Source of the DNA: an uncultured bacterium
GTDB taxonomy: Bacteria; Eisenbacteria; RBG-16-71-46; CAIMUX01
Assembly (NCBI GenBank): GCA_964371055.1
Contig: CAYJLF010000016.1
Span: 72,628 to 136,627 of the forward strand
DNA: 64,000 bases
Reading direction: 5' to 3'
Under the pieces are notes generated by a model. It had not been told where the DNA came from. It worked only from the letters and a program-made list of their open reading frames with translations, and ran no database searches. The translations under genes and the position numbers were made by a program. Below are positions 3,002-59,013 of this stretch, one piece after another (the stretch's first letter is position 1; the number at the start of each line of letters is the position of its first letter).

Positions 3002-3004
3002 GCC

Positions 3005-6036: not shown

Positions 6037-6038
6037 CG

Positions 6039-7131: not shown

Positions 7132-7159
7132 AAGATCCCACGGGTGCGGGACATGTCAA
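7132..7159 (-). promoter_or_regulatory. Putative sigma70 promoter of the mannoside operon
   Basis: Minus strand TTGACA (7159-7154), 16 nt spacer, then TG-n-GATCTT (7137-7132) upstream of GH130. Confidence 0.4.
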
Positions 7160-21943: not shown

Positions 21944-22249
21944 GAGGGACCTCCGCGGTGATACCCGGCGGCTTGGATAGCAGAACGCCCCGCTATTGTA
22001 CCAAGAGCCGCCTGAGGGGAGCGAGGGGAAGGCCACGGGCGCCATAACAGCTCCGCATCGGCCCGGCCTGCTTCACCTCGAGTCGATCCTCTTGTGGTCC
22101 CGGGCGTCCGCGCGGTATGCTCGAATGCGGTCGTTCGAGCCCGGCCTCCGGGCATCCGATCACGAAGGAGTCGCTTGTCGCCGTCATCTCCCGGCCGCAT
22201 CGCCACCCATCTGGTCGCGCCGCGGTCGCCGGATCAGGAGTCGCCCACC

Positions 22250-24614: not shown

Positions 24615-27600
24615 ATGAACAAGCGCCACGTCGAACCGGGCCCGCTCCCCGATGGGAACGGGCCTGACACATTGCCCCCGCTCCCCTGGCTGCGTGGCTA
24701 CGAGCGCACCCTCTCCGGCGAGCAGTGGCACTACCATGCTCCTCATCCGGAAGCGCAGACGGCGATCCTCGCCCGCGCCACCGACGGCCGGATGTCGATC
24801 GAGTGGGAGACCGAGCCGGTCCCCGAGGGGGACGACGAGGTCGCAGCCCGCCACGGTTCCGTGACCTTCATCTGGATGTGCGGGCTCGCCACGCAGAAGG
24901 GGGCACACGCCTTCACCCTCTCCGCCGACGGGCAACCGCTCGTCACGTTTCGAACCGGACGCGACTCGACCGAGAGGCGGTGGACGATCCGAGGCCACCA
25001 CGGGGCCACGCTTCGCTTCCGGACCGTCATGGTCGACCAGTTCGAGGAGCTCTTCGGCTACATGTGGCTGACGGTGCCTCGATCGCTCGTCAGCGCCGGC
25101 CTCCCGCTTCGCCTCCAGGTCGCCGCGGAAGCGGGAGGAAGCCCCGATTGGCACATGGTCTTCGAGCATGCCCTCGTGCCGTCGATCCAGGCGTACGCCG
25201 AAGAGGCGCTGGCCCGCCAGGGTGACGGCCTGGTTCGTCTCGCCCGCCTCGAGGTCTGCCATCTCGCTCCGCCGGCCCGCGTCGCGGTTCGGGTCACCCC
25301 AGATCCAGGAGCCGGCGCGCCGGGGCCGGTGATCGGCCCGCGACCGCTCTTTCCCGACGCCGGCGCGACGTTCGATCCGCCGTGGACCCTCCCTTTGGAA
25401 ATCGGCTACAACGCCTTTCTCCTCCCCGTGCCCGCCGACGCCACTCGGACCACGATCTCGATCGAGGAGGAAGCGGGTGTGCGGTCCCTCGAGCTTCCGC
25501 TGCCGCCGGTCGCCGCGCGCGAGCTCTGGTTCCTCCCCCACTCGCACGTCGACATCGGCTACTCCGACCCGCAGCCCGTCGTCGAACGCAAACAGTGGGC
25601 CCATCTGGAGCAGGCAATGGCGCTCGCCCGCGACACGCGGGAGAACCCCGCCGGGGCGCGCTTCCGGTGGAACGTGGAGGTGCTGTGGGCCATCACTTCC
25701 TGGTACGCGCAGGCCAGTGCCAACGAGAAAGCGGCCTTCATCGAGGCGGTACGGGCGGGAGAGATCGGGCTCCAGGGGACCTTTGCGAATGTGCTGACCG
25801 GTCTCTGCCACCCGGAGGAACTGCTGCACTTGACCGCCGCCGCGCGCGAACTGGCGCGGATCACCGGCGTACCGATCGACACGGCGATGATCACCGACAT
25901 CCCCGGCGCGACCTGGAGCCTCGCCCCCGCGCTGGCACAGGGCGGAGTGCGCCGTTTCTCTAGCGGACCGAATTACCTCCCCTGGCATGCCGACGGCGGC
26001 GATCGCATCGGCACTTCCGCCCGCGTGTGGGGCGACCGTCCGTTCTGGTGGATCTCCCCCTCGGGCGAGGAGCGCCTTCTCTTCTGGATGACCGGACGCG
26101 GCTACTCGTGGTTCCACGGCCTCAACTCCGGCCGGATCGGAGCCGGCTCCGTGCGCCCGATCCTCGACTACCTGCGGGAGCTCTCCACGCGCGAACACCC
26201 GTGGTCGATGGTCCAGGTCCGTTACACGATCGGCGGCGACAACGGGCCGCCCGACCCTGATCTTTCGGCCTTTGTGCGGGACTGGAACGAACGGTTCGCC
26301 TCACCAAGGCTCGTGATCGCCACCACCCAATCGATGTTCGATGAGTTCGAACGACGCCACGGCGCCGCGTTGCCGGAGTTTCGCGGCGACCTGACCCCCT
26401 ATTGGGAAGACGGCGCCGCTTCCACCGCGCGCGAGACCGCCCTGAACCGGCGCGCCGCATCCCTCCTCGTCGAGGCCGCGGCCCTCTGGAGCATGCGTCG
26501 GCCGAGGGAGTACCCGGCCACGGAGTTCCGCGCTGCCTGGAGGGAAGTCCTGCTCTTCAGCGAGCACACCTGGGGCGCGGCCGAGAGCGTCTCCGATCCG
26601 GACAGCGATGCCAGCCGCGCGCAGTGGGCCTGGAAGAAGGAGAGGGCCGAGGAGGCGCTCCGGCGCGCGCAGGCCCTGCAGGAGGCCGCGCTCGTCACCC
26701 GCGGGGCATCCCCGTCCATCGATCTTCTCAATCCCACCGGCTGGCGTCGCAACGACCTCGTCCTGCTCCCGCCACCCCTCGGCGCGAACACGGCCAGCGT
26801 GACCGACGCCCGGGACCAGCCGCTCCGTTTCCAGCGGCTCGCAGGGGGTGAAATCCTCGTCGAGGCAGGTGAGCTGCCCCCCTTCGCCGGAGTGCGCATC
26901 ACCCTCTCTCCGGCGTTACCCGCTCTATCCGCGGCGCGAACGCAGCCGGTCGAGATCGCCGACCCTCGCCGGCGGGCACGGCCCGGCACCACCGCGGATC
27001 GCGCCAGAGCCTCGCTCGATGCGAGCGGGGGAACGATCGAGAACGCAACCTTGCGCGCGCGCATCGACGGCGCGACCGGCGCGATCCAAAGCGTCATCCT
27101 GAAGGGAACCGCCGGGGCCGACGGAGTCGAGTGCGTCGACCCGAGCCGGTATCCGGGACTCAACGCCTACCTCTACGTCGCCGGCTTTGACCCCGAACAG
27201 GCCCTCGGTCTCACCACCGCGACCCTGCGCCTCGGCGAACAAGGCCCGTTGCGTGCGTCCCTCATCCTCGAGGGTGAAGCGCCGGGCTGCCGCCTGTTCC
27301 GCGCCGAGATCCGCCTGGCTGCGGGCAGCGAGGAGCTCGAGATCATCAACACGCTCGACAAGCTCGCCGTGCGGGCGAAGGAAAGCGTCCACTTCGCCTT
27401 TCCGTTCCAGGTCCCGGACGGCCGGGTCGAGGTCGATCTCGGCTGGGGCATGATCGAACCCGACCGTGATCAACTCCCGGGATCATGCCGGGACTACTTC
27501 TGCCCGCACGACACGGTTCGGATCGAGGGAGAGAAGGCCGGCGTAGTCTTCGCCAGCCTCGACGCGCCGCTGGTCGAGATCGGTGCGATGACCGACGAGT

Positions 27601-28112
27601 CGCCGCGGACGGGTGGCTTCCGCCGCTGGCGCGAGCGGACGGGTCCGTCCACGACGCTTTTCTCGTACGCGATGAACAACGCCTGGCACACCAACTACAA
27701 GGCTGACCAGGAAGGGTGGATCGAGCTTCGGTACGCGATCCGTTTCCGCACCCCGCGCCTCGGCCGTTTCCCGGCGTCGCCCGAGGCATCGGCCCGGCGC
27801 TTCGCGGCGACCTGGCTCCATCCCGTGGTCGCGGTCCCGGCAGATACGGCGATGCCGCCACCCCCGTCGCTGCTCTCGCCGGACAACCCACAGATCGAAA
27901 TCACGAGCCTTGCTCCGACCGACGACCGCCGAGGCTGGATGGCGCGGCTCTACAACCCGACGCGCGTCCCGCAGGACGTGTCGCTCGGGGGGGCGCTCGC
28001 CGCCGGTGCCGTGTCCTTCCGGAGCGACCTCGACCAGACCCGGGTAGAACCCGTCTCGTTCCCGATGCGGATTCCGCCGCATGGAATCCGATCTCTGAGA
28101 CTCGAAGGGTGA
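24615..28112 (+). CDS. GH38-related glycoside hydrolase with N-terminal extension
   Basis: 'LWFLPHSHVDIGY', 'FRWNVE', 'MITDIPG.TW', 'PFWW.SPSGE..L.W', 'YWEDGA.S' and 'LFSEHTWGA'. Confidence 0.8.
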   Translation: MNKRHVEPGPLPDGNGPDTLPPLPWLRGYERTLSGEQWHYHAPHPEAQTAILARATDGRMSIEWETEPVPEGDDEVAARHGSVTFIWMCGLATQKGAHAFTLSADGQPLVTFRTGRDSTERRWTIRGHHGATLRFRTVMVDQFEELFGYMWLTVPRSLVSAGLPLRLQVAAEAGGSPDWHMVFEHALVPSIQAYAEEALARQGDGLVRLARLEVCHLAPPARVAVRVTPDPGAGAPGPVIGPRPLFPDAGATFDPPWTLPLEIGYNAFLLPVPADATRTTISIEEEAGVRSLELPLPPVAARELWFLPHSHVDIGYSDPQPVVERKQWAHLEQAMALARDTRENPAGARFRWNVEVLWAITSWYAQASANEKAAFIEAVRAGEIGLQGTFANVLTGLCHPEELLHLTAAARELARITGVPIDTAMITDIPGATWSLAPALAQGGVRRFSSGPNYLPWHADGGDRIGTSARVWGDRPFWWISPSGEERLLFWMTGRGYSWFHGLNSGRIGAGSVRPILDYLRELSTREHPWSMVQVRYTIGGDNGPPDPDLSAFVRDWNERFASPRLVIATTQSMFDEFERRHGAALPEFRGDLTPYWEDGAASTARETALNRRAASLLVEAAALWSMRRPREYPATEFRAAWREVLLFSEHTWGAAESVSDPDSDASRAQWAWKKERAEEALRRAQALQEAALVTRGASPSIDLLNPTGWRRNDLVLLPPPLGANTASVTDARDQPLRFQRLAGGEILVEAGELPPFAGVRITLSPALPALSAARTQPVEIADPRRRARPGTTADRARASLDASGGTIENATLRARIDGATGAIQSVILKGTAGADGVECVDPSRYPGLNAYLYVAGFDPEQALGLTTATLRLGEQGPLRASLILEGEAPGCRLFRAEIRLAAGSEELEIINTLDKLAVRAKESVHFAFPFQVPDGRVEVDLGWGMIEPDRDQLPGSCRDYFCPHDTVRIEGEKAGVVFASLDAPLVEIGAMTDESPRTGGFRRWRERTGPSTTLFSYAMNNAWHTNYKADQEGWIELRYAIRFRTPRLGRFPASPEASARRFAATWLHPVVAVPADTAMPPPPSLLSPDNPQIEITSLAPTDDRRGWMARLYNPTRVPQDVSLGGALAAGAVSFRSDLDQTRVEPVSFPMRIPPHGIRSLRLEG

Positions 28113-29345: not shown

Positions 29346-30260
29346 CTAGAAGTAGCTCTGCTTCACCCGGCCCCAGGTCACGATATGGGTCGGCGTCGGG
29401 CACGGGTTCGGATCGCATGGCACGCCCGCGCCGAAGAACTCTCCTCCGCCCGCCGTGCACTGCTCCGGCGTGTACCAGCGGCACTCGATTCCGATGCAGC
29501 AGGCCCCCTCGGCCGGCGGCTGCAGACACGGATTCGGCTCACAGCTCAACCCGAGGAACGTCCCTCCCGCCGCCGCGCAGGCGCTCGGGGGAAGGATCTG
29601 GCAGGAGCCGTCCGCGAAGCAGCAGGCGCCCGGATCATCATTGCCCGGGGGGCAGGTCACAACGCCCGCCTGTCCGAAGCCGAGGCTGCCAAGAGCGACG
29701 ATCGTATCCTCGACCGGGGGAACGCTGTCGTCCACGAAGACCATGCCCTGCGAAGGGTGGGCCGTGATCGCCCATGAGCCCGGCGGGCCGTAGCCATAGC
29801 CGGCCAGCCAGTAGCACTCGACCATCGTCGTCGTCTTGACCAGGCCAAAGCTGAGGCCCACGCCGCCGCCGCTCGTCAAGGGCCAGCCGGCTTGCGCGAT
29901 CTCGAAGTCGGCGACCGGATCGGGAAGACCGCCGGCGACGACGGCAACCTCCGATGGGAACTGCGCGCCAAAGACCAGCGCCTTCAGGCGCGGCGCCGCG
30001 TCGGGTGGGAAGGCGGCGTAGACCTTCCAGACCCATCCAGCTCCGCTCTCCGGCACCCCGAGCGGCAACTCGGCGTCGACCCCCACACACGCGGGCGCCT
30101 GGCTGGGATAGGCCGACGCGTCCGAGGTGTAGACGAGGCCGGTGTCATGCACGACCAGGGTGCCACCGAAGTTCGGCCCCGCCAGCGCCTGGCCCGAGAC
30201 CAGCCCCCAGGAAGCCCCGAACAGGATCGCCAAGGTCAGGATCGTAAGCCGCCGGATCAT
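29346..30260 (-). CDS. Secreted protein: unknown N-terminal domain, 2 Cys-rich repeats, C-terminal TWGRVKQSYF
   Basis: MIRRLTILTLAILFG... signal peptide after GGAGGG. Paralog of 30592-31482. Confidence 0.85.
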   Translation of the reverse strand: MIRRLTILTLAILFGASWGLVSGQALAGPNFGGTLVVHDTGLVYTSDASAYPSQAPACVGVDAELPLGVPESGAGWVWKVYAAFPPDAAPRLKALVFGAQFPSEVAVVAGGLPDPVADFEIAQAGWPLTSGGGVGLSFGLVKTTTMVECYWLAGYGYGPPGSWAITAHPSQGMVFVDDSVPPVEDTIVALGSLGFGQAGVVTCPPGNDDPGACCFADGSCQILPPSACAAAGGTFLGLSCEPNPCLQPPAEGACCIGIECRWYTPEQCTAGGGEFFGAGVPCDPNPCPTPTHIVTWGRVKQSYF

Positions 30261-30591
30261 CTCTTCGCCCTCCCTGATGCCACCGAACCGGCACCCGTGC
30301 GGATGCCCCGCCATCGCCCCACGCCCGGACTCGAGCGTGGAGCGGGACGAGCCCCGGATCGCCGCGTATTGGATCGCTGGGTTGGTTATCGGCTGCAATC
30401 GAGCGGATGTGCAGGGAGAAGCTGGGGAGCGCAACCTGCCTCCCGCGCCCGGTCCCGGGGTTGGGCACCGGGCGGCGGGGGCACCCCCGCCCCCACCCGG
30501 TCGGCCCGCCCGGGGTATCAACCCCCCCGGCGGGCCCGGCACATCGCTCCGGCTGGCAGGCAGCCGTCTGTTCGCGCGACCTTCCAGCCGT

Positions 30592-31482
30592 CTATGGGCG
30601 GTGGATCGCCTTGATCCGTCCCCAGGAGGTCTCCTCGATCGGCGTTCCGTCGCACGGATTGGGGTCGCAGGTGAAGATCTCCAGGAGAGTGACCCCGCCC
30701 AGGCACTCGCAAACGTTGGGCCAGTGGAGCTCGCAGGTGCCGTCGGGGAGACAGCAGGCGCTGCCGGCGAGCGGCGGGCACGGGTTCGGGTCGCAGGAGA
30801 CGTCCTCTCCGAACCACAGGCCGCAGAGCTCGACACACTCCGCCTCCAGGACGATCAGGCAGTTACCCGGCTCCAGGCAGCAGGCCCCAACCTGCGGGAT
30901 TGGGGCCGGACAAGGCAGGCTCCCGGGGACTCCGAAGCCAAGCGAGCCGAACGCCGCCACCGGGTCCTCCACCGGCGGAACCGAGTCATCCACGAAGAGC
31001 GTCGGCCCCTGGGGATGCGGCGTCAGGGACCAGACGCCCTGGTTGTAGGCGTACCCGGCCAGCCAGTAGCAGTCGTTCACGGTGGCGGTCTTGACCTCGC
31101 CAAAGACCACTCCGACCCCACCGCCGCTGACGGACGGCCAACCATCCTGCCCGATTTCGAAGTCGTGCAACGGGTCGATCAGGCCGGCCGCCTCGACGAT
31201 CACCTCGGGCGGGAACTGCGATCCCATGACGAAGGCCTTCAGGCGCGGCGACGAGCCTGGCGGAAAGGCCGCCCAGACATGCCACAGGATCGGGATGCCG
31301 AGGTCCGCCTGCACGTCGGCGTTTACGCAGGCGTCCAGGGCGCAGTCGTACTCGTAGGTCCGGAGGATCTGGCACTCGTGAACGATCAGCACGCCGCCGG
31401 CGTTGGGCCCGGCGAAAGCGGGCACGAACGAGACGCCGAGGAGAAGAGTCAAGGCCGTAGTCAGACGAACGAAGAATCGCAT
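30592..31482 (-). CDS. Secreted protein: unknown N-terminal domain, 2 Cys-rich repeats, C-terminal SWGRIKAIHRP
   Basis: MRFFVRLTTALTLLLGVSFVPAFA signal peptide after GGAGG. Shares AAFPP..PRLKA, DFEI.Q.GWP..SGGGVG, CYWLAGY and FVDDSVPPVED with 29346-30260. Confidence 0.85.
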   Translation of the reverse strand: MRFFVRLTTALTLLLGVSFVPAFAGPNAGGVLIVHECQILRTYEYDCALDACVNADVQADLGIPILWHVWAAFPPGSSPRLKAFVMGSQFPPEVIVEAAGLIDPLHDFEIGQDGWPSVSGGGVGVVFGEVKTATVNDCYWLAGYAYNQGVWSLTPHPQGPTLFVDDSVPPVEDPVAAFGSLGFGVPGSLPCPAPIPQVGACCLEPGNCLIVLEAECVELCGLWFGEDVSCDPNPCPPLAGSACCLPDGTCELHWPNVCECLGGVTLLEIFTCDPNPCDGTPIEETSWGRIKAIHRP

Positions 31483-31746
31483 CGGGGCCTCCTTTTCCGC
31501 AGGTTCACATCGCGGGATCGCGTCTGCGCAGCGGCGGAAACCTGGCCGTCGGAGCCGGCGCGGCACAAGTATAGCGCAACTCCACGACAAGTGCTACCTG
31601 ACGAACTTGGTCTTCTCTTTGCCCATGCCTCGGATAGCCCGGACGGAGGGCGGGGCCGGTGGCCGGTCCCCGGATGGCCGGATCTCCAAAGTCCGAGCCT
31701 GCCGAAGTGCGCGCTCGCCGGGTGCCTGGCCCGCAGGCCCGCCGAG

Positions 31747-32715
31747 CTACTCGCGGTATCCTTCCTTGACCGCCCCCCAGCTCAGCCGGCGGGTCTCCGG
31801 TTCCGGATCGTCCCCCGGGGCGGACTCAGAACCGGTCACATAGATCGTGGCGGGAAGGCAGGCCTGGCAGACCGAGTCGGCGAAGATCTGGGCCTCGTAC
31901 GTGCCGGGGCCGATCACGCCGGCATCGACGGTCACGGTGATCGATCTCTGGTAGTCGTCGATCCAATCGGCCTGGACGTGAATCCACGGGTAGCTGGCCC
32001 CCCAGGCCACATTGCAGGGAGATCCGTCGGGCCGGGAGCGGACCCACGCATCGAGATGCCCTTGTCCCTCCTCGCCCACCGGTACCGTGATGACGAGGCC
32101 CGACTGCAGGAAGGTCGCCCCGCAGGCCAGCCCGTAGGTCGAGCAGTCATGCCAGCACCAGCAATCGACGGGACCGGCGTGGGCGGGCCAGGTCTCCATT
32201 TCCCAGTCGAATCCGTCCTCGCGCCAGCTCGCTTGCGCGATCTCCACCTGTCCGCGTGCGGTGACGTCCAGGACGACACGCCCGACCAGGAAGAACGAAC
32301 CCGACATCGGAGTCGGACCTCCGAAGGAGATCTGCGCGGCGAGGGAGCCGGGACCGTCCGAACGCACGAGGGCTCCGCCGACGCAGTTCTCGAACTCCAC
32401 GAGTTGCCAGTCGGCGGGCCAGGCCAGTTCGAAGGTGAGTCGGTCAGGCATCGGTGGGTAGGTGATCAGGCACTCGAAGAAGAGATCGAACTCCAGAGGT
32501 CCGGCCTGATCGAGGTGCTGCACCACCTCCTCGCAGGTGGTGATCGGGTTGGTGGTACAGAATCCGTCGTTCACCGGCTGCACGTGCAGCCTGGCGGTTC
32601 CCGCCGGCAGCGGGTTGGCGACCGTGATCGCCGGGGTGAGCACGGCGACCAGGCACACGACCACGAAGACGGCCAGAACCGGCCCGGGGCCTTGGAAACG
32701 GTTCAGCGCTCTCAT
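31747..32715 (-). CDS. Secreted Cys-containing protein with BACON/Ig-like C-terminal region and SWGAVKEGYRE terminus
   Basis: Signal peptide after GGAGG. About 11 Cys in the mature part. 'W.ASYPWI.V...ITVTVDA..IGPGTYEAQI' resembles BACON-type Ig domains. Confidence 0.75.
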   Translation of the reverse strand: MRALNRFQGPGPVLAVFVVVCLVAVLTPAITVANPLPAGTARLHVQPVNDGFCTTNPITTCEEVVQHLDQAGPLEFDLFFECLITYPPMPDRLTFELAWPADWQLVEFENCVGGALVRSDGPGSLAAQISFGGPTPMSGSFFLVGRVVLDVTARGQVEIAQASWREDGFDWEMETWPAHAGPVDCWCWHDCSTYGLACGATFLQSGLVITVPVGEEGQGHLDAWVRSRPDGSPCNVAWGASYPWIHVQADWIDDYQRSITVTVDAGVIGPGTYEAQIFADSVCQACLPATIYVTGSESAPGDDPEPETRRLSWGAVKEGYRE

Positions 32716-32992
32716 GGCGTCCTCCCTGGTGGGAATCCGAATCGAATGGCGCAACACTCGCGTCGTTCGGCATGGAGACGGAGGAACTCAGACGCGACAA
32801 GGATACCACCCCCGCCGGGCACCGGCAACCGGCAGCCACGGACCGACGGCCGGAACCTCCGCTGACCGCGCTGGTTCATCCAAGGAGTGGGCGCGGTCGA
32901 CCTGGGTCACCCGCTGACCCCGGGGCCGCGCCCTCGACTTCACATCGCCAAAGAAGACCGAATATCCCCTCAACACGGAAAGAAGGAAGCCG

Positions 32993-33760
32993 ATGAAGAT
33001 CAGCGCATCCCGTCCGGTCGGCCTGCCGGCTGTTCTCCTCCCGCTGCTGGCGTGGTCGGTTCTCGCGAGCCCATCGCCGGGGAACGCCGCGGACCACCCC
33101 GAGACGACGCGGTCAACCGCGGACGACGCAACCGGCTCGCCGGTGGTCCTGCGGGTCTACACCGACTACGTGTGACCCTGGTGTTACCTCAGCACCGTGC
33201 GTGTTGAACGGCTGCAACGGGAGTACGACATCCGGGTCGAGTACGTGAACTTCCCGCTTCACGCCGACACGCCCCAGGAGGGCGTGGCGCTGTTGGAGCT
33301 CTTCGGCGGCGAGGCCGCGCGGCCGCGCCTGCGGGAGTCCCAGCAACGGTTGAAGGCACTCGCGGCCGCGGAGGGACTGCCGATCTCCGATCGGGAGATG
33401 ACGTACAACAGCCGATCGGCCCAGGAACTGGGCGCGTGGGCCACGCGCCAGGGCAAGGGAAAGGAGTTCCACGACGCCGTCTACCGCGCCTACTTCGTCG
33501 ATGGGCGGAACATCGCCGAGCGCGACGTGCTGCTCGCCCTCGCCGCTTCGGCGGGGCTCGATCCGAAGGAAGCCGCCGGCGTGCTCGATCACCGCACGTT
33601 CAAGAGCGTCGTGGATCAGGAGTGGGCCGCGAGCCGGACCGCGGGTGTCACGGCCGTGCCGACGTTCGAAGCCGGCGGACGGAAGGTCGTCGGGGCACAG
33701 CCCTACGAGGAGCTGGTCCGGCTCTTGCAGCAGGCGGGGGCGAAGAAGCGGGCGGGCTGA
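32993..33760 (+). CDS. Exported DsbA/FrnE-like thioredoxin-fold selenoprotein (Sec61, UxxC)
   Basis: ORFs 32993-33175 and 33197-33760 are in frame across a single TGA (33173-33175). Read-through gives VYTDYV-U-PWCYL, matching the DsbA/FrnE 'YSDYVCPWCY' active site. The rest has 'FPLH..TP.EG', 'YNSR.AQEL..WA' and 'GVTAVPTF...GAQPYE'. Confidence 0.88.
33190..33214 (+). promoter_or_regulatory. Candidate bacterial SECIS hairpin
   Basis: CAG-CA-CCGT/GCGTGTTGA/ACGG-CTG. The apical loop begins with G, 24 nt after the UGA. Folded by eye only. Confidence 0.5.
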
Positions 33761-33771
33761 GGGAGGGCGCC

Positions 33772-34605
33772 TCAAGGCAAGGCCAGGTGGTGCCCCCTCA
33801 AACCCGCGTCCGATGCGTACAGGATCTCCGGATCTTCTCCCTCGACCTCGAGGCGTCCCTGCACGCGCTGGCGTACGATCCCGACCTCGTCGCGGATGAA
33901 GTAGTCGATCTGCTGCACATTCCTGATCTTGGTCGACGGACCGGAGGTGTCCGGAGTGATATCGAGGACGACGGTCACCCGTCCATGGTGAGCGTCGGTC
34001 CAGGTGCCGGAGGGCGTGACGATGTTCCACCGCCCCTTGCTCTCGGCCGTCACGCTGAGCGCCACGTGCACCGGGATGCCGTTGACCTCGCCGTCCGCCT
34101 GCCCGCCGGCCAGGGGCCAGGTGGTCCCGGGCGGCGCGGCGAAGTCGAGCGCCTTCCAGGGCAGGCTTCCCTCCAGGATGCCGATGATCCGGCGTGAGAG
34201 CGAATCCGACCCGAAGCCGGTGAATCCGACGCGCAGGTAGGCCGTCTGCCCGGACGTCCGCCACCAGGTCGTGTCGGCCGGATCGCCATCGAGAAGGGAG
34301 ACGACACCGCTGAAGCTCACCCCCCCGAACTCACGCCTCACGGTCACGCTGTCGATCCGCTGATAGAGAGGACGAGGCTGGCCGGACAGGGTGTCACGGA
34401 CGTCGTAGGTCCAGCGACTCCCGACCGACAGCGGGAAGTCGATCGGCTCCGGGCTCCAGGGCGGAGGCTTGGTGCCGCCGTCGTCGTCACTGCAGGAAAG
34501 CGCGAACAGGAAGACGAACGCGAGCAGGCAGAGAGCCCGCACGTGACCAGAGCGACGACCCCACGGACCCGGCGATGACCGGTGAAGATCTCTTGAGACG
34601 GTCAT
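33772..34605 (-). CDS. Hypothetical lipoprotein
   Basis: Lipobox 'FLFALSC' then 'SDDDGGTKPP...FPLSVGSRWTY', a pattern common in FCB-type lipoproteins. Start uncertain (34605 or GTG ~34543). Confidence 0.7.
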   Translation of the reverse strand: MTVSRDLHRSSPGPWGRRSGHVRALCLLAFVFLFALSCSDDDGGTKPPPWSPEPIDFPLSVGSRWTYDVRDTLSGQPRPLYQRIDSVTVRREFGGVSFSGVVSLLDGDPADTTWWRTSGQTAYLRVGFTGFGSDSLSRRIIGILEGSLPWKALDFAAPPGTTWPLAGGQADGEVNGIPVHVALSVTAESKGRWNIVTPSGTWTDAHHGRVTVVLDITPDTSGPSTKIRNVQQIDYFIRDEVGIVRQRVQGRLEVEGEDPEILYASDAGLRGHHLALP

Positions 34606-34777
34606 GAACGGCCCCTCCCTGGACCGATCGGCGCTCCGAACGCGGCTCGCCCAGTTCCTCAGCATCCTGCTGGTTCCCGACGATCGCGCCGGCGCCGGGT
34701 TGGCTGCCAGCCGGTTCGGAGCGCGCCGTGGGCGAAGATACGCCCGGCTCTCCCGGCGTGCTAATCTCTCTCCCGCC

Positions 34778-36616
34778 ATGCCTCGCGCCATCCGGTACCG
34801 GGAGCTCTACGAAGGAGCGCAGTTTCTGTTGCTGCTCAGCCGCGACCTCGAGCGGGTCTCGGCCCAGCAGGATCCGTCACGGGTCATCCGCATGGCCGTC
34901 CGGCGCCTCGGGGAGTACTTCCATGCCGACCTCGCGGTCCAGGTCGACGTTCGCCGCGCCGACGGCGGCCTCGAGCGCCCCTTCGCACTCGGTCTCAGCC
35001 CGCGGGGACAGCGCCTCGTTTCAGGGCCGGCGGAGTCGGGCTTCCTCGAGGAGTGCCGCGCGTTCCTCCGCCGCCCTATCGGGCCCGCGGATCACACCCG
35101 GATTCTGTTGCGGGTGCTGAACGACGACCGGCCCGAGGCGGTCCTCGCACTCTTTCGTCCAGGGCGCAAGTTCTCGCGGCGGGAGACGCAGCTGGGACAG
35201 GCGGCGGCCGAGATCCTGAGCGAGAACCTCCGTCACCGCGAACGCGAGCGGGCCCAGGCGATGCGGGAGCGGATCTACGCGAAGATCCTGGGCGAGATCC
35301 GACCCCAGGACGTCCTCTACCAGATCCTGCACGGCCTGAAGCGACTCCTGCAGTACGACCACGGCGGTGCCGTGCTTCTGGTCGATCCCGACCAGAGGGA
35401 GCTGGCGGTGCGGGCCGAGATCATCGCGTGGACCAAGGCGAAATCGGAACGGATCGGACAGCGCCTGCCGCTCACCGAGGAGTTGCGCTCCTGGATCGAA
35501 GCGAACCGGCGGCCGGTCCTGCTGCGGGCGGACCTCCCTTCCACCGACCCGCCGCAGGTCGACATGGTCGATCCGGGGGCCGGCGGCGCGGCGGTTCCCC
35601 CCTGCCTGCGGCGCGAGTTGACCGACCCGCCCCCCGGCACGCCACCGGCGCGCGCGATGATCGTGGCCGTCCTGCGCCATCGCGGCGACACGCTCGGCAT
35701 CCTGCAACTTCGCTCCACTTCGCTGTCTGCGTTCGCCCCGTCGGACCTGCGCCTCCTGGAGGAGTTCCTTCCGCTCGCCTCGCTGACCTTGCACAACTCG
35801 ACCCTGTACAAGACCCAGCACGATCTGCTTCTCACCGCGGAGCGGCGGACGGCTTTGGCGGTCCTGGCCCGCGCCATCGCGCACGATCTGGCGAACGCTT
35901 TCACGGTGATGCTCCCCCTGCTGCAGCAGATGCGGGTCGATGTCGGCCGCGGCGAGGCTGGAACGACGTCTCTCCCGCCGTCCCTCGACGGGCTCGCCCC
36001 ACAACCCAAGGCGACGGATCGTGAGCGCCTGGCCCGGGACCTGGAGGTGCTCGAGCACTATGCCAGGTCTTCGTCCCGGATCTTCCAGGGGCTCCTGTCG
36101 ATGGCCAAGGGCGTGCAGGAGCCCGCCGCCTGGATCGATCCGGCCGGCGTGCTCGAGTCGATCCAGCGGATGCTCGGCCCCTCGCTGCACGCGCGGCGAA
36201 TCGAGCTGCGGCGCGAGGTCGAGGGCACTCTGCCGAAGGTCTTCGCCCGGCGCGGCGACCTGGAACAGGTCATACTCAACCTGGTCTACAACGCGCGCGA
36301 CGCGATGCCGGACGGCGGAGCACTCACCTTGCGGGCGCGCGGGAGGGACGACGGCGTGGAGATCGCGGTCATCGATACCGGCCACGGCATGACCGAGGAG
36401 GTGAAACGACGGATCTTCGAACCGTTCTTCACCACCAAGCGGGCCGGCTCGGGACTCGGACTCGACATCTGCCGGTCGATCCTCTGGGACTACGACGGCC
36501 GGATCGAGCTCGACTCGGAACCGGGACGCGGAACGGTGGTCACGATCTGGCTGCCGCGCGTCGCCGAGCGGCTGGCGTCGGGCCGATCGACGCGAGGACC
36601 GGCCGATGGAATCTGA
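34778..36616 (+). CDS. GAF-containing sensor histidine kinase
   Basis: H-box 'AIAHDLAN', N-box 'EQVILNLVYNARDAM', G1 'DTGHGM', F 'FEPFFTTK' and G2 'GSGLGL'. Start uncertain. Confidence 0.9.
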   Translation: MPRAIRYRELYEGAQFLLLLSRDLERVSAQQDPSRVIRMAVRRLGEYFHADLAVQVDVRRADGGLERPFALGLSPRGQRLVSGPAESGFLEECRAFLRRPIGPADHTRILLRVLNDDRPEAVLALFRPGRKFSRRETQLGQAAAEILSENLRHRERERAQAMRERIYAKILGEIRPQDVLYQILHGLKRLLQYDHGGAVLLVDPDQRELAVRAEIIAWTKAKSERIGQRLPLTEELRSWIEANRRPVLLRADLPSTDPPQVDMVDPGAGGAAVPPCLRRELTDPPPGTPPARAMIVAVLRHRGDTLGILQLRSTSLSAFAPSDLRLLEEFLPLASLTLHNSTLYKTQHDLLLTAERRTALAVLARAIAHDLANAFTVMLPLLQQMRVDVGRGEAGTTSLPPSLDGLAPQPKATDRERLARDLEVLEHYARSSSRIFQGLLSMAKGVQEPAAWIDPAGVLESIQRMLGPSLHARRIELRREVEGTLPKVFARRGDLEQVILNLVYNARDAMPDGGALTLRARGRDDGVEIAVIDTGHGMTEEVKRRIFEPFFTTKRAGSGLGLDICRSILWDYDGRIELDSEPGRGTVVTIWLPRVAERLASGRSTRGPADGI

Positions 36617-37934: not shown

Positions 37935-38187
37935 TCGGCGCCGCCGCCGCGACGGCCGGAACGCCCCGGACTGGCGGGCGGACCGTCCACCCGGCTGGCC
38001 CAGGGGGACTTGGTCGGACCGGGCCTCGCCCTTCTTGCGATCAGGAATCCGCGGACCCCGAGGGCTCCGAGACCTTAGGATGCCCGATTTCTCACGGGTT
38101 CCCCTATACTTGTGCTGCGGGCTGTCGGGGGGCCCGCACTTTCTTCCTTCGCCATCTTTCCCCAGACATTTACGCAGGGAGGTTCGC

Positions 38188-41148
38188 ATGCTGCGACCGG
38201 TATCGATCGAGACCACGCGACGGGACCGGAGCGTCCGTCGCCGGCTGGCGGCTTCACTCGGGCTCGCGCTTGTCGTAGGCGCCATCCTCCTGGGATCGGT
38301 GTTCAGCAGCGCGGAGGCCGGAAGACTCCACCCGGCGGTCCAGGATCAGTTCGCCGACCTGGCCCCGACGGACGAGGCCACCGTCCTTCTGATCCTGACG
38401 GATCAGGCCGACATCAGCGCCCTCAACGGCGCGCTCAAGATGCAGCGAGCGACCCGGCAGGAACGGCATCGCCAGGTGATCGAGGAACTGCAGAAGGCGG
38501 CGGCGCGCTCGCAGGGGCCTCTGATTGATGAGTTGAACCGGCGGAGGGGGCTGGGGCAGATCTCCGGCTTCACGCCCTACTGGATCACGAACCTCATCGT
38601 CGTCCGAGGTCAGCGCGGCGCGATCGAGGAACTGGCGGCCCGACTCGACATCGACGTGGTCGAACCTGAAGTCCGCCCCGAATTGATCGAGCCGATCGGC
38701 GGCCTCCCGGCGCTCGGAGCGACCGAGAAGAACGAGCGCGCGGGCCTGACCCCCGGCGTCCGCGCCGTGCGCGCCAACGAGGTCTGGCACAACCTGGGGA
38801 TCGACGGCACCGGCGCCCTGGTCGCCGTGATCGACACCGGTGTCGACGGAAATCACCAGGCGCTTCGCTACAACTGGCGCGGCTACCAGGGCGCGCACCC
38901 CTGGCAGGAATGCTGGCTCGACGTCCTCGGGACCAACACGCAGTTTCCTAACGATGGCTATGGCCACGGCACGCACGTGATGGGGACGATCGCCGGGATG
39001 ACGGCGGCCGACTCGATCGGCGTCGCCTACGGCGCGCAGTGGATCGCCTGCAACGCCATCAACCAGGGCGTCGGCTCCGGCTTCGACCAGGACGTGATCG
39101 ACTGTTTCCAGTGGCTGGCCGATCCCGACGGGAATCCGAACACCGTCGATGACGTGCCGGACGTGGTGCAAAACTCCTGGCGGATCAACGAGGGCTTCGG
39201 CGGCGGCTACACCGATTGCGATACCCGCTGGTGGGCCGCGATCGACAACTGCGAGGCCTCCGGCGTGGTGGTGACCTTCTCCGCCGGCAACGAGGGGCCG
39301 GGCGCGCAGACGATCGGGTCGCCTTCGGACCGCGCCACCACCGCGTACAACGTCTTCTCCGTCGGAGCGGTCGACGCGACCAACTATCAGTTCCCCTACC
39401 CGATCGCCGGCTTCTCCAGCCGCGGCCCGACCGGGTGCAACGTTCCCGTGGAGCTGAAGATCAAGCCGGAGATCAGCGCGCCGGGCGTCGCGGTCTATTC
39501 CGCGTGGCCGGGTGGCGGATACACCAATCTCGACGGCACGTCGATGGCCGGCCCGCACGTGGCCGGCGTGGTGGGGCTGATGCGCGCGGCCAACCCCGAC
39601 GTCGATGTCGACACGATCAAGCAGATCCTCTTCGACACCGCGCGTGATGAGGGACCGGCCGGCGAAGACAACACCTACGGCTGGGGAATGATCGATGCCT
39701 ACGAGTCGGTCATCCGCGTCCTCACCGGCTATGGCACGCTGGCGGGTGAGGTGACCAACGCCAGCAACGGCGGTACGCCGATCGATGGCGCGACCGTGCG
39801 GCTGGTGGAGATCAACCGCAACTTCGTCAGCGACGCGGTCGGCCACTACTCCGGCATGGCGGCGGAGGGGACCTACACCGCCGAGGTGACCCACCCCTCC
39901 TTCGCCACGGTCAACCTCCCCGGAGTCAGCCTGCTGGCCGGCGAGACGACCACGCAGGACTTCGCCCTCAACGACACCGGCAGCCCGACCTTCGTCGATC
40001 TCGACTCCCCGGAGGCGGTGCAGGATCCGAACGCACCGATCCCGGTCTCGGTCCTGATCGAGGACTACAGCGCCATCGCGGCGGCCACCCTGACCTGGCG
40101 CGTGAACGGCGGCTCCTTCAGCGACGTGCCGATGGCGCTCCAGCCGTCCGGCCGGCACCTGGCCCTGATCCCGGGCCAGGCGGTCGGATCGAACATCGAG
40201 TTCTACCTCACGGCCGAAGACATCGAGGGGAATGACGGCATCGATCCGCCCGGAGCGCCGATCGACCTGCACCAGATCCTCGTGACCTTCGCCTTCTTCG
40301 TCGAGGACGGCGAGACCGAACAGGGCTGGACTCTCTCCGCGCCCGGCGACGCGGTCAACGGCCGTTGGGTGCGGATGGATCCGTACGGCACGCAGTCGGG
40401 CGGCATCCAGGTGGAGCCGGCGGACGATCACACGGCGGCGCCCGGCACGCAGTGCTTCGTCACCGGAGCGGGTACGCCCGGGGGACCCGCGAGCGGATCC
40501 GACGTCGACGGCGGGTGCGTGACTCTCCTCTCGCCGGTGATCGACCTCGCGACCGCCGAGGAGGCGATCGTCCGTTACTGGCGGTGGTTCATCAACACCG
40601 GCGGCATGGGCGGTTACATGCTCGCTTATGTCAGCAACAACAACGGCAACTCCTGGGTCATCCTCGAGCAGCTCCCGGGCGGCCTGGCCAACCAGTGGAC
40701 GCAGCGGAGCTACAACCTCGCCGACCTCCTTCCGCTGACCGACCGGATGCGGTTCCGCTTCCTGGTCTGTGACAACGGGGAGGAGTCACTGGTCGAGGCG
40801 GCGATCGATGACTTCATCATCGAAGGGATCCCCGGCGTGACCGCGATCGAAGGGACGCTCGCGGAGGGCGGCTCCACGCGATTGATGCCGAATCGTCCGA
40901 ACCCGTTCTCACGGGAGACCTCGATCCGATTCCACCTCGCCGAGTCCGGTCCGGCCGACCTGGTGGTCTACGATCCCGCCGGACGCCGCGTCCGCGCACT
41001 GGTTTCGGGTCCTCAGGGTGCCGGCGAGCACGCCGTCACCTGGGACGGGCGGGACGACCAGGGGCACGTGGTCAGCGCCGGCGTCTACTTTTACGAGCTG
41101 CGCGCGTCCGGAGTCGAGACGCAGAGGAAGATGCTGCTGCTGAGGTGA
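38188..41148 (+). CDS. Secreted S8 subtilase, paralog 1 (FlgD-Ig CTD)
   Basis: Catalytic motifs 'IDTGVD', 'HGTHVMG' and 'GTSMAGPHV', oxyanion 'FSAGNEG'. CTD 'PNRPNPF...RKMLLLR'. RBS GGGAGG. Confidence 0.93.
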   Translation: MLRPVSIETTRRDRSVRRRLAASLGLALVVGAILLGSVFSSAEAGRLHPAVQDQFADLAPTDEATVLLILTDQADISALNGALKMQRATRQERHRQVIEELQKAAARSQGPLIDELNRRRGLGQISGFTPYWITNLIVVRGQRGAIEELAARLDIDVVEPEVRPELIEPIGGLPALGATEKNERAGLTPGVRAVRANEVWHNLGIDGTGALVAVIDTGVDGNHQALRYNWRGYQGAHPWQECWLDVLGTNTQFPNDGYGHGTHVMGTIAGMTAADSIGVAYGAQWIACNAINQGVGSGFDQDVIDCFQWLADPDGNPNTVDDVPDVVQNSWRINEGFGGGYTDCDTRWWAAIDNCEASGVVVTFSAGNEGPGAQTIGSPSDRATTAYNVFSVGAVDATNYQFPYPIAGFSSRGPTGCNVPVELKIKPEISAPGVAVYSAWPGGGYTNLDGTSMAGPHVAGVVGLMRAANPDVDVDTIKQILFDTARDEGPAGEDNTYGWGMIDAYESVIRVLTGYGTLAGEVTNASNGGTPIDGATVRLVEINRNFVSDAVGHYSGMAAEGTYTAEVTHPSFATVNLPGVSLLAGETTTQDFALNDTGSPTFVDLDSPEAVQDPNAPIPVSVLIEDYSAIAAATLTWRVNGGSFSDVPMALQPSGRHLALIPGQAVGSNIEFYLTAEDIEGNDGIDPPGAPIDLHQILVTFAFFVEDGETEQGWTLSAPGDAVNGRWVRMDPYGTQSGGIQVEPADDHTAAPGTQCFVTGAGTPGGPASGSDVDGGCVTLLSPVIDLATAEEAIVRYWRWFINTGGMGGYMLAYVSNNNGNSWVILEQLPGGLANQWTQRSYNLADLLPLTDRMRFRFLVCDNGEESLVEAAIDDFIIEGIPGVTAIEGTLAEGGSTRLMPNRPNPFSRETSIRFHLAESGPADLVVYDPAGRRVRALVSGPQGAGEHAVTWDGRDDQGHVVSAGVYFYELRASGVETQRKMLLLR

Positions 41149-41230
41149 TCGCACCGTTTCCGTCCTCCTCTCTCGAGCCGGAAGTCTGACGACCGGAGAG
41201 CGACGGAGACAGCGGTCGGCGGCATCGGAA

Positions 41231-41266
41231 GGGCGGAGAGTCGTAAGACTCTCCGCCCGGTTTTTT
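41231..41266 (+). terminator. Rho-independent terminator after subtilase 1
   Basis: Perfect 12-bp stem GGGCGGAGAGTC-GTAA-GACTCTCCGCCC followed by GGTTTTTT. Confidence 0.85.
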
Positions 41267-41491
41267 CCCCGGCCACGGGAAGGGCGATCCGTGCCTGCGG
41301 ATACGCCACCGCCCCTCCCTGCTGAACACGCCCGTATCATCCCGAGCCCCAATGCGGTATCATTTTACGCGGACTGTGCAGTCCCCGGCTTCGCCGGATC
41401 GGTTCCCGCAGCGCCGCCTCCGGGCGCCCGCCGCCCTCGGGACCGCGCCCCGCAGCCAGGGGCGCCGAACTTCCGCCAGGAGGAGACACCA

Positions 41492-44440
41492 ATGTCGCGT
41501 CACCCATCGCGCCCCTCGTTCCGGGCCCTCTCGCCCCCCACCCTGGCAGCGCTCCTCTTCGCCTCCGCGCTGGCGGCCCTCCCGCCGGCTTCCCTGGCCG
41601 GCACGCTGCACCCGGCCGCGGCCGAGGAATTGAACCGCCTGAGACCGGCCGATGAGGCCACCGTGCTCCTGATCCTCGACGACCAGGCCCCGATTCCGGC
41701 CCTGAACGACGCGTTGAAGCGGGAGAGAACGGGGCTGGCGGAGCGCCACCGGCGGGTGCTGCTCGAACTGCAGCAGGCGGCCTCGCGCTCGCAAGGGCCG
41801 CTGCTGCAGGAGTTGGAGCGGCTCCGCGCCCGCGGAATGGTCTCCCGTTACCGGTCGTACTGGATCAGCAACCTGGTCCGGGTGAGGGGACAGCGTGCCG
41901 CGATCGAAGCACTCGTCTCGCGCGCCGACATCGCCGTGGTCGAACGGGCTGTCCGGCCGCAACTCATCGCTCCGGTCGGGGAACGTCCGGTCATCGGTGC
42001 AGGAAAGGGCCGGGGCGAAGCGACCCCCGGCCTGCGCGCGATCCGAGCGCCCGAGGTCTGGCGCGACTTCGGTCTGAACGGCGCGGGGGTACTCGTCGCC
42101 AACATGGACACCGGGGTCGATGGAACCCACCCGGCGCTGGCCGACCGCTGGCGGGGGCGGAACGGGCAGCATCCCTGGCCGGAGTGCTGGCTGGATGTCG
42201 TGGGCACCAACACCGAGTTCCCGACCGACGCCGGATCGCACGGCACGCACGTGATGGGGACGATCTGCGGCCTGGATGCCGGCACAGAGGACTCGATCGG
42301 CGTCGCCTGGGGAGCCGAGTGGATCGCCTGCAACGCGATCGGACAGAATTCGAACCCCGACTTCGACGGAGATGTCATCGCCTGCTTCGAGTGGCTGGCC
42401 GACCCCGACGGCAATCCGAACACGATCGACGACGTGCCGGCGGTGGTGCAGAACTCCTGGCGCGTCCACGAGGGATTCTCCGGCTACACCGACTGCGACA
42501 GCCGCTGGTGGGAGGCGATCGACAACTGCGAAGCGGCCGGTGTCGTCGTGACCTTCTCCGCCGGGAACGAGGGGCCGAACCCGTCGACGATCGGTTCGCC
42601 CCCGGACCGCGCCCTCACGCCGTACAACGCCTTCTCGATCGGCGCAGTCGATGCCACCCACTACGAGTTCCCCTACCCGATCGCGTCCTTCTCCAGCCGC
42701 GGTCCGACTGGCTGCGACGTGATTCCCTCCCTTAAGATCAAGCCGGAGGTCTCGGCCCCGGGCGTGACCGTCTGGTCCTCGATCCCCGACAGCGGCTACA
42801 CCAACATGGACGGAACTTCGATGGCCGGCCCGCATGTGGCCGGAGCGGTCGCCCTGATTCGCGCCGCCAATCCTGACCTGGATGTCGACAGCATCAAGCA
42901 GATCCTGATGGAGACCGCTCGCGATCTCGGCGACCCCGGCGAGGACAACACGTTCGGCTGGGGCGTGATCGACGTCTACGCGGCGGTCAGCTACGCCCTC
43001 TCCGATCTCGGTCGCATCGAGGGCTCGGCCACCAACGGCAGTAACGGCGGGAGCCCGGTCCATCTCGCGCAGGTCCGGCTGGCGGAGATCGGCCGCGATC
43101 TCTACACCAACCAGGCGGGGTTCTACACCGGCGTCGCCGCGCCGGGGACCTACACGCTGGAGGTGACTCATCCCTCCTTCGCCTCGGTGGTCCTTCCGGG
43201 TGTGACCCTCGTCAACCAGCAGACCACGGTACAGGATGTTGTCCTGACCGACATCCTCGGTCCGCAGTTCCTTGACCTGCAATTCCCGGAGACCTGGCAG
43301 GATCCCGACCACCCCGTGGCGGTCTCGACACGCATCTACGAAGAGAGTTCGCTCGATCTCGCCGAAGTGCACTGGCGCGTCGACGGTGGGCCCTTCCAGA
43401 CCGTACCCCTCATCGCGCAACCGACCGGCCGCCACGAGGGCCTCATCCCGGGGCAGCCGGTCGGCTCGCTGATCGAGTTCTACCTCCGCGGAGTCGACCG
43501 TGTCGCCAACGAGGGGATCGACCCGCCCGGCGCCCCGGCCGACCTCTATGCGATCCGCATGACCCGGGCCTACTTTGTCGACGACGCCGAGGAAGACCGC
43601 GGGTGGGTTCTCTCCGCGTCGGGCGATGCCGTCAACGGGCGCTGGGTCCGGATGGACCCCTACGGCACGATGCATCTCTCCACGCCGGTCGAGCCGGCCG
43701 ATGACCACACTCCCGACCCGGGGGTGAATTGCTTCGTCACCGGCGCCGGAATGCCGGACGGACCTGCATCCGGGTCCGACGTCGACGCCGGCTGCGTCAC
43801 ACTTCTCTCGCCGGTGATCGATCTCGCCGGCGCGCAGGAAGCGGTCCTCTCCTACTGGCGGTGGTTTGCCAACGTCAATGGACCCGGCGGCAGCTTCACC
43901 GTCACCGCCAGCCACGACAATGGCACGACCTGGGTCCAGGTCGAGCAGCTCCTCAATCTGAGTGCGAACCAGTGGACGTTCCGGAGCTTCGACCTCGGAA
44001 CGCTGCTCCCGCTGACCAGCCAGCTGCGCGTCCGTTTCGTCGCGTGTGATACCGGCATCGAGTCCCTGGTCGAGGCCGCGGTCGACGACTTTCTGGTCGA
44101 GGGGATGCCGGTCCCGGCCGCGGTCCCGGGTGACGACGACTCGAACGGCTCGTCGATGCTCCCGGCGACGGCCCTCCGCCCGGGACGGCCCAGTCCTTTC
44201 GAAAGGGAGACTCTGATCTCCTACCGCCTCGGCGTGGCGGGTCCCGTGCGGCTGACGGTCTATGATCCGTCGGGACGCTCGGTCCGCACGCTGGTGCGCG
44301 GCGATCAGGCCGCGGGCGAGCAGGTGGCCCGCTGGGACGGTCGGGATGACTCCGGACGTGAGCTCGGGGCTGGAGTCTATTTCTACGAGTTGCGCGCGGC
44401 CGACCAGGCCGCGCAGCGGAAGATTCTGCTGCTGCGCTGA
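41492..44440 (+). CDS. Secreted S8 subtilase, paralog 2 (FlgD-Ig CTD)
   Basis: 'MDTGVD', 'HGTHVMG', 'FSAGNEG', 'GTSMAGPHV'. RBS AGGAGG. Ends RKILLLR. Confidence 0.93.
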   Translation: MSRHPSRPSFRALSPPTLAALLFASALAALPPASLAGTLHPAAAEELNRLRPADEATVLLILDDQAPIPALNDALKRERTGLAERHRRVLLELQQAASRSQGPLLQELERLRARGMVSRYRSYWISNLVRVRGQRAAIEALVSRADIAVVERAVRPQLIAPVGERPVIGAGKGRGEATPGLRAIRAPEVWRDFGLNGAGVLVANMDTGVDGTHPALADRWRGRNGQHPWPECWLDVVGTNTEFPTDAGSHGTHVMGTICGLDAGTEDSIGVAWGAEWIACNAIGQNSNPDFDGDVIACFEWLADPDGNPNTIDDVPAVVQNSWRVHEGFSGYTDCDSRWWEAIDNCEAAGVVVTFSAGNEGPNPSTIGSPPDRALTPYNAFSIGAVDATHYEFPYPIASFSSRGPTGCDVIPSLKIKPEVSAPGVTVWSSIPDSGYTNMDGTSMAGPHVAGAVALIRAANPDLDVDSIKQILMETARDLGDPGEDNTFGWGVIDVYAAVSYALSDLGRIEGSATNGSNGGSPVHLAQVRLAEIGRDLYTNQAGFYTGVAAPGTYTLEVTHPSFASVVLPGVTLVNQQTTVQDVVLTDILGPQFLDLQFPETWQDPDHPVAVSTRIYEESSLDLAEVHWRVDGGPFQTVPLIAQPTGRHEGLIPGQPVGSLIEFYLRGVDRVANEGIDPPGAPADLYAIRMTRAYFVDDAEEDRGWVLSASGDAVNGRWVRMDPYGTMHLSTPVEPADDHTPDPGVNCFVTGAGMPDGPASGSDVDAGCVTLLSPVIDLAGAQEAVLSYWRWFANVNGPGGSFTVTASHDNGTTWVQVEQLLNLSANQWTFRSFDLGTLLPLTSQLRVRFVACDTGIESLVEAAVDDFLVEGMPVPAAVPGDDDSNGSSMLPATALRPGRPSPFERETLISYRLGVAGPVRLTVYDPSGRSVRTLVRGDQAAGEQVARWDGRDDSGRELGAGVYFYELRAADQAAQRKILLLR

Positions 44441-44499
44441 GCGCCGGGCGCGCGGCCCGCGGAATCGATCGGATCGTTGGCTCGCAGATTCACGGGAGG

Positions 44500-51993: not shown

Positions 51994-51995
51994 GC

Positions 51996-57878: not shown

Positions 57879-58098
57879 CTCCGTCCGATCCCTCGACGGT
57901 GAACTACGCGGGCGATTCTACATGATTCCGGCGGACCGGGCTGTGGACGGATGGCGGCGCACGGCGGTCGCCGCCGCGCGGCCTCGCGGATCCGGCGTTG
58001 TCGGCCCCGGGATCCCGGGGTACCATCCGCTCCTCTCCGGCGGGAACCAGAGTCTGGTCTCCGGGGTTGCTGGCCGGTCAATCCATGAGGAGGGCGGA

Positions 58099-58972: not shown

Positions 58973-59013
58973 CGGCGCGAAACGATCCCCACCGGAAAGC
59001 AGGGAGAGCTGAA

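Follow-up and report, generated by a model that had tools for sequence, protein, structure and literature searches.

We analysed a stretch of DNA 64,000 nucleotides in length (the window), which carries on its forward strand a complete selenoprotein gene of 255 codons. The product is predicted to consist of an N-terminal signal peptide, a short linker and a DsbA/FrnE-like thioredoxin-fold domain, and the features of the gene are as follows.

32983–32989, plus strand: Shine-Dalgarno-like AAGGAAG, 3 nt before the ATG, read from the sequence
32993–33760, plus strand: complete selenoprotein gene, 255 codons including selenocysteine 61 (Sec61), with the terminal TGA at 33758–33760
32993–33067, plus strand: predicted Sec-type signal peptide MKISASRPVGLPAVLLPLLAWSVLA, probably cleaved after VLA25
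33068–33136, plus strand: linker rich in Pro, Ser, Thr and Asp, residues 26–48 of the translation, joining the signal peptide to the DsbA domain
33137–33748, plus strand: DsbA/FrnE-like thioredoxin-fold domain, residues 49–252 (Pfam PF01323; FrnE 5cnw)
33173–33175, plus strand: UGA for selenocysteine 61, first residue of U-P-W-C, at a column that holds TGA or Cys in homologues
33182–33184, plus strand: Cys64 (TGT), resolving residue of the UxxC motif and sole Cys in the protein
33189–33207, plus strand: SECIS hairpin, with the 5' arm UCAGCAC at 33189–33195, the loop CGUGC at 33196–33200 and the 3' arm GUGUUGA at 33201–33207
33653–33667, plus strand: A-V-P-T-F loop, residues 221–225, at the position of the thioredoxin-fold cis-proline loop

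Translation of 32993–33760 (+) meets only one internal stop, the TGA at 33173–33175, in the motif ...LRVYTDYV-*-PWCYLSTV.... A preliminary description of this DNA had placed a single in-frame TGA exactly at the first position of a CxxC motif, and the translation bears this out (DYV-U-PWC). The same description had noted a ribosome-binding site before the upstream ATG; AAGGAAG stands there, and in each of the 11 orthologues examined the distal start has a purine-rich motif in front of it. It had further stated that ORF callers split the gene. In the ORF listing of the window the gene is indeed divided, within one frame, into 32993–33175 (60 aa) and 33197–33760 (187 aa, with a GTG start), and orthologues in public assemblies are likewise called as an ORF of 43–69 aa and another of 171–209 aa. 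The coding signal that was said to continue on both sides of the TGA is visible in the GC content at the three codon positions (GC1/2/3), which is coding-like both upstream (0.64/0.56/0.84) and downstream (0.74/0.47/0.88). A six-frame screen of the window for in-frame TGA codons flanked on both sides by coding signal gave three sites, one of which is the selenoprotein TGA, while the other two are ordinary junctions between adjacent genes. TGA is the normal stop of 25 of the 36 plausible genes in the window and the commonest ordinary stop there, which indicates that the codon is not reassigned genome-wide.

The status of the internal TGA was assessed by comparison with homologue DNA from 80 loci drawn from a collection with one genome per species, 80 metagenome loci and 10 loci from individual assemblies. 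Of the 170 motif-bearing sequences, window included, 161 have TGA at the Sec61 column and the other nine have TGT or TGC; nothing else was found at this position, in agreement with the earlier expectation of either Cys or selenocysteine at this column. The TGA-bearing loci span many phyla, and among the homologues is a locus of the Olavius delta-3 symbiont (L049), a taxon named in published selenoprotein surveys. The residues directly before the TGA are in frame and conserved (V-L-x-V-[YF]-[ST]-D-Y-V). Two close relatives are of particular weight. Locus L161, from an independent assembly with 99.77% DNA identity to the window over 12.2 kb (20 mismatches), has the same TGA, and locus L165, from a separate species with 79% DNA identity to the window, has kept it. 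The retention of the codon in both argues against a sequencing or assembly error, a private nonsense mutation or a pseudogene. Among database proteins, the nearest (60–99% identity) are 168–209 residues long and all begin just past the CxxC motif, and the farther matches (50–57% identity) have CPWC and are full-length, at about 200 residues.

If the TGA were nevertheless a nonsense mutation or an error, only a 60-residue peptide or a 187-residue fragment lacking the active site would be made. Gene callers do treat the codon as a stop, and the machinery for selenocysteine insertion is not seen in the window, as is consistent with such a reading. The identical TGA recurs, however, in 160 further loci, which come from independent assemblies and represent many taxa; Cys is the sole alternative at the codon; both flanks are in frame and conserved; and the TGA is followed, in TGA forms only, by a structured element with compensatory changes, which is described below. 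A fragment beginning past the TGA would also lose the first beta-strand and the entire redox motif. We regard a pseudogene or an error as extremely improbable.

The structured element is a hairpin of 7–8 bp that starts 13 nt past the UGA and has a G-U in its loop at +25/+26 (counting the U of UGA as 1). Folding the window sequence by itself was of limited use. The hairpin sequence alone folds with −7.8 kcal/mol, four segments around the UGA, each folded as a single sequence, had z-scores of −0.4 to +0.6, not distinguishable from shuffled sequence, and scans of the window and 11 related loci at Rfam gathering thresholds matched no family. Since lone folding could not decide, support for a SECIS element comes from the comparison across homologues. 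An alignment of 75 UGA genes contains a nucleotide block CUCAGUAC-CGUGC-GUAUUGAG that begins 12–13 nt after the UGA. Helix positions pair in 90% of the sequence-by-pair cells (73 distinct sequences), compared with 22–47% when the 3' partners are slid by 1–3 columns, and five of the eight helix pairs show changes on both sides. The covariation score of the hairpin was reached by none of 500 column shuffles, and RNAalifold independently predicts the same helix.

The same contrast is apparent when UGA and Cys genes are compared. In 156 UGA genes the pair +21/+31 is U-A in 138 and C-G in 18, the latter being the pair found in the window, and is broken in none; all of the inner 7 bp can form in 123 of these genes, and at least six of them in 155. 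By comparison, the inner 7 bp are fully paired in none of the nine Cys genes, where only 2–5 of the 7 positions pair. The encoded peptide differs between the two forms, with LST[VG]R[IV]EKL at the hairpin in TGA forms versus LGDNRVKKL in Cys forms. Its restriction to TGA forms, together with the compensatory changes, shows that the hairpin behaves as a bacterial SECIS element, and the SECIS-like hairpin of the preliminary description is thus upheld. In the SECIS element of E. coli fdhF, the G-U of the apical loop is located at +23/+24. The hairpin in the window resembles that element in being a short stem-loop at a fixed distance past the UGA with a G-U in the apical loop, but its stem sequence differs, the conserved helix has no obvious bulged U, and the hairpin sits within, and constrains, the codons for L-S-T-V-R-V-E.

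Neither the 64 kb window nor the flanking DNA of the loci in its clade yielded a selA, selB, selD or tRNA-Sec gene. About 38 ORFs that cover the window were scanned with Pfam and gave no SelA, SelB, SelD, DsbB, VKOR or DsbD domain, and ARAGORN detected no tRNA there. The window and all loci were also scanned for motifs of SelD (GxGCK), SelA (SGDKLLGGPQ) and the SelB N-terminus. Only one of the 165 loci scanned, L059, has selenocysteine machinery adjoining, with selA-selB directly upstream of the DsbA-like selenocysteine gene (at about 80–700, where the SelA motif SGDKLLGGPQAG and the SelB N-terminus GHVDHGKT occur). Since no such machinery was seen in the window, we infer the use of selenocysteine by the organism from the conservation of the UGA and the hairpin. 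Two candidates in related loci were rejected. The molybdopterin enzyme neighbouring the gene in L163 was considered as a selenocysteine-containing formate dehydrogenase and has Cys at the relevant position (ARICHSPS), and a 97-nt 'tRNA-Gly(tcc)' at 2321–2417 of L004, the sole ARAGORN hit in the related loci, is a false positive, lying within an fdhD-like frame (YTTSSCGICGK...) and having no Rfam match. An fdhD-like gene directly precedes the selenoprotein gene in both L004 and L163.

It is conceivable that the UGA is read through without selenium, by a near-cognate Cys or Trp tRNA or by Cys-tRNA(Sec), so that an ordinary CxxC or WxxC protein results. In favour of this, the window showed no selenocysteine machinery, and Cys is functionally acceptable at the column, where nine homologues have it. 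Readthrough of this kind would leave unexplained a SECIS-type hairpin that lies at the canonical distance and has conserved loop G residues and compensatory substitutions, and the constraint that this hairpin places on the peptide LST[VG]R[IV]E in all TGA forms. The adjoining selA-selB genes in L059 also speak against it, as does the role of TGA as the commonest ordinary stop in the window, and we consider selenium-free decoding very unlikely. The locus is a genuine but routinely mis-annotated selenoprotein gene of a known thiol-disulfide oxidoreductase family.

The selenoprotein gene stands alone, divergent from 31747–32757 (−) and convergent with a hypothetical gene at 33772–34791. Further downstream are genes for a histidine kinase with a GAF domain, a PP2C/SpoIIE-domain response regulator and three S8 subtilases that have FlgD_ig tails. 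The divergent pairing with 31747–32757 (−) is kept only in the closest relatives, L161 and L165; the gene context is not conserved among the more distant members of the clade, which have unrelated neighbours, and no gene for a DsbB, VKOR or DsbD partner lies near the selenoprotein gene in the window. The products of 30592–31590 (−) and 31747–32757 (−) are secreted-looking Cys-rich proteins with 22 and 12 Cys, respectively, and no Pfam match, the former with repeated ACCxxxGxC...CDPNPC motifs. At 57922–61288 (+), a TlpA/redoxin-like protein (57922–58713), a DUF3570 protein (E 7e-119) and an ApbE flavin transferase are encoded in a row, and these genes may form an envelope redox or flavinylation cluster.

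Several other features of the window were recorded. The S8 subtilases are three tandem paralogues of about 1,000 aa each (38035–47493, +), with CarboxypepD_reg and a C-terminal FlgD_ig domain, and a beta-helix protein encoded at 20414–22045 (−) has the same C-terminal FlgD_ig domain, which looks like a common sorting or attachment tag. Segments 2–7154 and 24615–28112 contain a mannoside-utilisation set comprising two GH38 alpha-mannosidases, a sodium:solute symporter, a CBM9 protein and a GH130 mannoside phosphorylase. At 51604–54137 (+), a gene for a BlaI-type repressor precedes those for a BlaR1/M56 sensor-protease pair. There are also very long stop-free ORFs antisense or out of frame to real genes (30142–32865, +; 33113–34264, −; 41360–44677, −; and others). 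These are non-coding by codon-position GC and typical of DNA with 68.6% GC, and were rejected as genes.

With U replaced by C, the protein matches the Pfam DSBA family (PF01323) with E 5.4e-35 over residues 53–246, which covers profile positions 2–191 of 191. Its best match among solved structures is D. radiodurans FrnE (5cnw/5cp1; E 1e-20, residues 49–252), whose CPWC aligns with U-P-W-C. The V, P and T of the A-V-P-T-F loop are invariant in the alignments, and the loop aligns with GVPFF of FrnE.

The N-terminus sets this protein apart from most of its homologues. Outside the clade described here, most UGA homologues have an ATG 14 codons before the selenocysteine and no hydrophobic leader, whereas the window and 16 relatives (L161, L165, L001–L005, L081, L162–L164 and L166–L170) have an N-terminal extension of 43–69 residues before it. 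All 17 extension-bearing sequences have a hydrophobic leader, and these leaders are not alignable with one another, nor is the linker stretch alignable between orthologues at the DNA level. The leader in the window has an n-region with net charge +2 and an h-region VLLPLLAWSVLA, whose Kyte-Doolittle mean over 12 residues is 2.31, followed by a VLA|S site; the predicted mature protein would start with SPSPGNAADHPE..., and the leader is without a lipobox Cys. We scored 11 distinct N-termini representing 12 sequences, the leader of L161 being identical to that of the window. Their n-regions range from +1 to +4, their cores have Kyte-Doolittle means of 1.9–2.8 over 12 residues, and small-residue sites resembling A-x-A occur past the core (VLA|S in the window; SMA|A, AFA|G and ARA|D in others). 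On inspection, five leader sequences added later are of the same kind. The leaders of L002, L163 and perhaps L005 contain an RR pair, which could suggest Tat export of those proteins; there is none in the window leader.

In a neighbor-joining tree of 165 sequences, the 12 leader-bearing members then placed form an exclusive clade, three members of which, L001, L004 and L005, come from MAGs labelled Candidatus Eisenbacteria (JAXLXQ01, CAWANH01 and CAVSKL01, respectively). The phylum of the window organism is suggested by these relatives of the selenoprotein gene; homologues of an ABC-F housekeeping protein from the window were about 70% identical, those with names belonged to Geobacteraceae/Desulfuromonadales, and they gave no useful placement. 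The scan of metagenomes yielded nearly all leaderless forms and one further leader-bearing locus, L081. The preliminary description had pointed out that FrnE-type proteins are usually cytoplasmic, whereas this one has an apparent signal peptide. As a prediction this holds, given the leaders of the 17 sequences and the published description of FrnE proteins as predicted cytoplasmic (PMC8945050).

The latter description is also among the points that favour a genuine selenoprotein that is not released, either because translation begins at an internal GTG at 33143, giving a cytoplasmic protein, or because the leader stays uncleaved as a membrane anchor. Of the 11 orthologues checked, 8 have a GTG or ATG 9–10 codons before U (the window, L001–L004, L163, L164 and L165), and the internal start of L165 is preceded by GGAGG. 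Moreover, the leaderless form makes up most of the family, and the leaders of L001 and L005 are without a clear A-x-A site. Nevertheless, L005 and L162 have no start codon near the internal position, and the GTG 33143 of the window, 10 codons before U, has no Shine-Dalgarno-like motif while all distal starts have one. The leader extension has coding-type GC3, against an internal start, and in 17 of 17 orthologues the frame is open from the distal start and encodes a positive n-region and a hydrophobic h-region despite the lack of sequence conservation. On balance retention in the cytoplasm or membrane appears unlikely, and we conclude, as a well-supported prediction from these sequence properties, that the window protein is probably exported from the cytoplasm.

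Taken as a whole, the evidence makes it likely that a single gene encodes an exported, 255-residue precursor of a DsbA/FrnE-type oxidoreductase in which the attacking residue is the selenocysteine of U61-P-W-C64. In the proposed mechanism, a ribosome arriving at UGA 33173–33175 would be met by SelB, bound with Sec-tRNA(Sec) to the hairpin at 33189–33207, and selenocysteine would be inserted, as the conserved RNA structure suggests. Translation would then continue as far as the ordinary TGA at 33758, a stop codon without a hairpin of this kind. Residues 1–25 would act as a Sec-type signal peptide, judging from the properties of the 17 orthologous leaders, in which case the mature protein of about 230 residues, some 24 kDa compared with about 27 kDa for the precursor, would function beyond the cytoplasm, either in the periplasm or in the cell envelope. 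There, by analogy with what is known of the family, it may take part in disulfide exchange with secreted or envelope proteins by way of a Sec61-Cys64 selenenylsulfide.

Selenocysteine has a low pKa and is both a better nucleophile and a better leaving group than Cys. Because of this chemistry, the FrnE-like lineage of the protein and the isomerase and reductase activities of drFrnE (PMC8945050), the most likely role is that of a fast disulfide isomerase/reductase rather than a strongly oxidising DsbA. The protein has no Cys besides Cys64, so the regeneration route of drFrnE through a C-terminal CxxxxC is impossible for it.

What may be new in these observations is narrow. The selenoprotein family was described in 2005 and the export of bacterial selenoproteins has precedents, so that only the exported clade, a monophyletic signal-peptide-bearing branch of the DsbA-like selenoprotein family, is possibly new. 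It is tempting to speculate that a branch of FrnE-type selenoproteins gained a signal peptide in Candidatus Eisenbacteria and relatives and now serves as an envelope thiol-disulfide catalyst acting through a selenenylsulfide, a broader proposal that we hold only tentatively. If this is correct, selenocysteine would have a periplasmic role in disulfide chemistry that has not been described before. The proposal would also give the first hint of selenocysteine use in the uncultured phylum Candidatus Eisenbacteria and would join this soil phylum to the selenocysteine-using bacteria; a literature search combining 'Eisenbacteria' and 'selenocysteine' found no paper. Export would in addition raise the question of what re-reduces or re-oxidises the selenenylsulfide, as the means of cytoplasmic recycling (thioredoxin reductase, the C-terminal tail of FrnE) would be absent in the envelope. 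The understanding of selenocysteine decoding and of DsbA-type enzymes is unchanged by the finding.

There is also a consequence for annotation. Every public protein entry retrieved for the leader clade is truncated at the UGA, with a separate upstream ORF of 43–69 aa called, and no NCBIfam model scores above its cut-off for the DsbA-like selenocysteine family. Pipelines will therefore go on reporting a 60-residue orphan and a DsbA fragment without an active site.

Among known systems, the classical periplasmic DsbA of the E. coli type and the actinobacterial DsbA (4pwo) share with the window protein an exported thioredoxin fold with an inserted helical domain and an xxC pair. The similarity is weak and limited to the C-terminal part (E 2e-6; about 1e-6 for DsbA structures in the PDB), and the window protein differs from classical DsbA in having U-P-W-C, not C-P-H-C, and in having no dsbB or VKOR gene among the approximately 38 window ORFs scanned.

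FrnE (DR_0659; PDB 5cnw, 5cp1; cd03024) is closer, with a CP(W/F)C-type site and a V-P-[TF] cis-Pro loop (PMC8945050), although it has Cys where the window protein has selenocysteine. FrnE is described as a cytoplasmic disulfide reductase whose C-terminal CxxxxC tail helps regenerate the active site (PMC8945050), a tail found in many members of the subfamily and not in all. The window protein, with Cys64 as its sole Cys, is without this tail, and it differs from the cytoplasmic FrnE subfamily further in its predicted signal-peptide-like leader of 25 residues.

The Rcas_1661 thioredoxin-like (seleno)lipoprotein family (NF041057) is likewise an exported, DsbA-related family with some selenoprotein members, and its entry means that envelope-located thioredoxin-fold selenoproteins are already catalogued. 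The window protein scores 49.1 bits against this model, compared with a cut-off of 190, over the C-terminal 100 residues only, and its leader has no lipobox. The binding proteins of the SAO system are another example of exported bacterial selenoproteins (bioRxiv 10.1101/2022.07.06.499078).

The nearest known system is the 'DsbA-like protein' selenoprotein family (COG2761, UxxC), which was described from nine sequences of the Sargasso Sea metagenome in 2005 (PMC1088965), in accord with the earlier remark that such selenoproteins are known from metagenomic surveys. It was found in several genomes in 2006 (PMC1794560), is included as 'DsbA-like protein form 1, PF01323, UxxC' in a 2026 review (PMC13188914), and is also listed in PMC9312934. 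The term 'signal peptide' is absent from the texts of PMC1088965, PMC1794560 and PMC13188914, an absence of mention that does not prove novelty. The window gene shares with form 1 (COG2761/PF01323) the Pfam domain, the UxxC motif with selenocysteine first, the occurrence of selenocysteine/Cys pairs among homologues and a SECIS element after the UGA; to these, the window gene and its 16 relatives add the signal-peptide-like extension of 43–69 residues.
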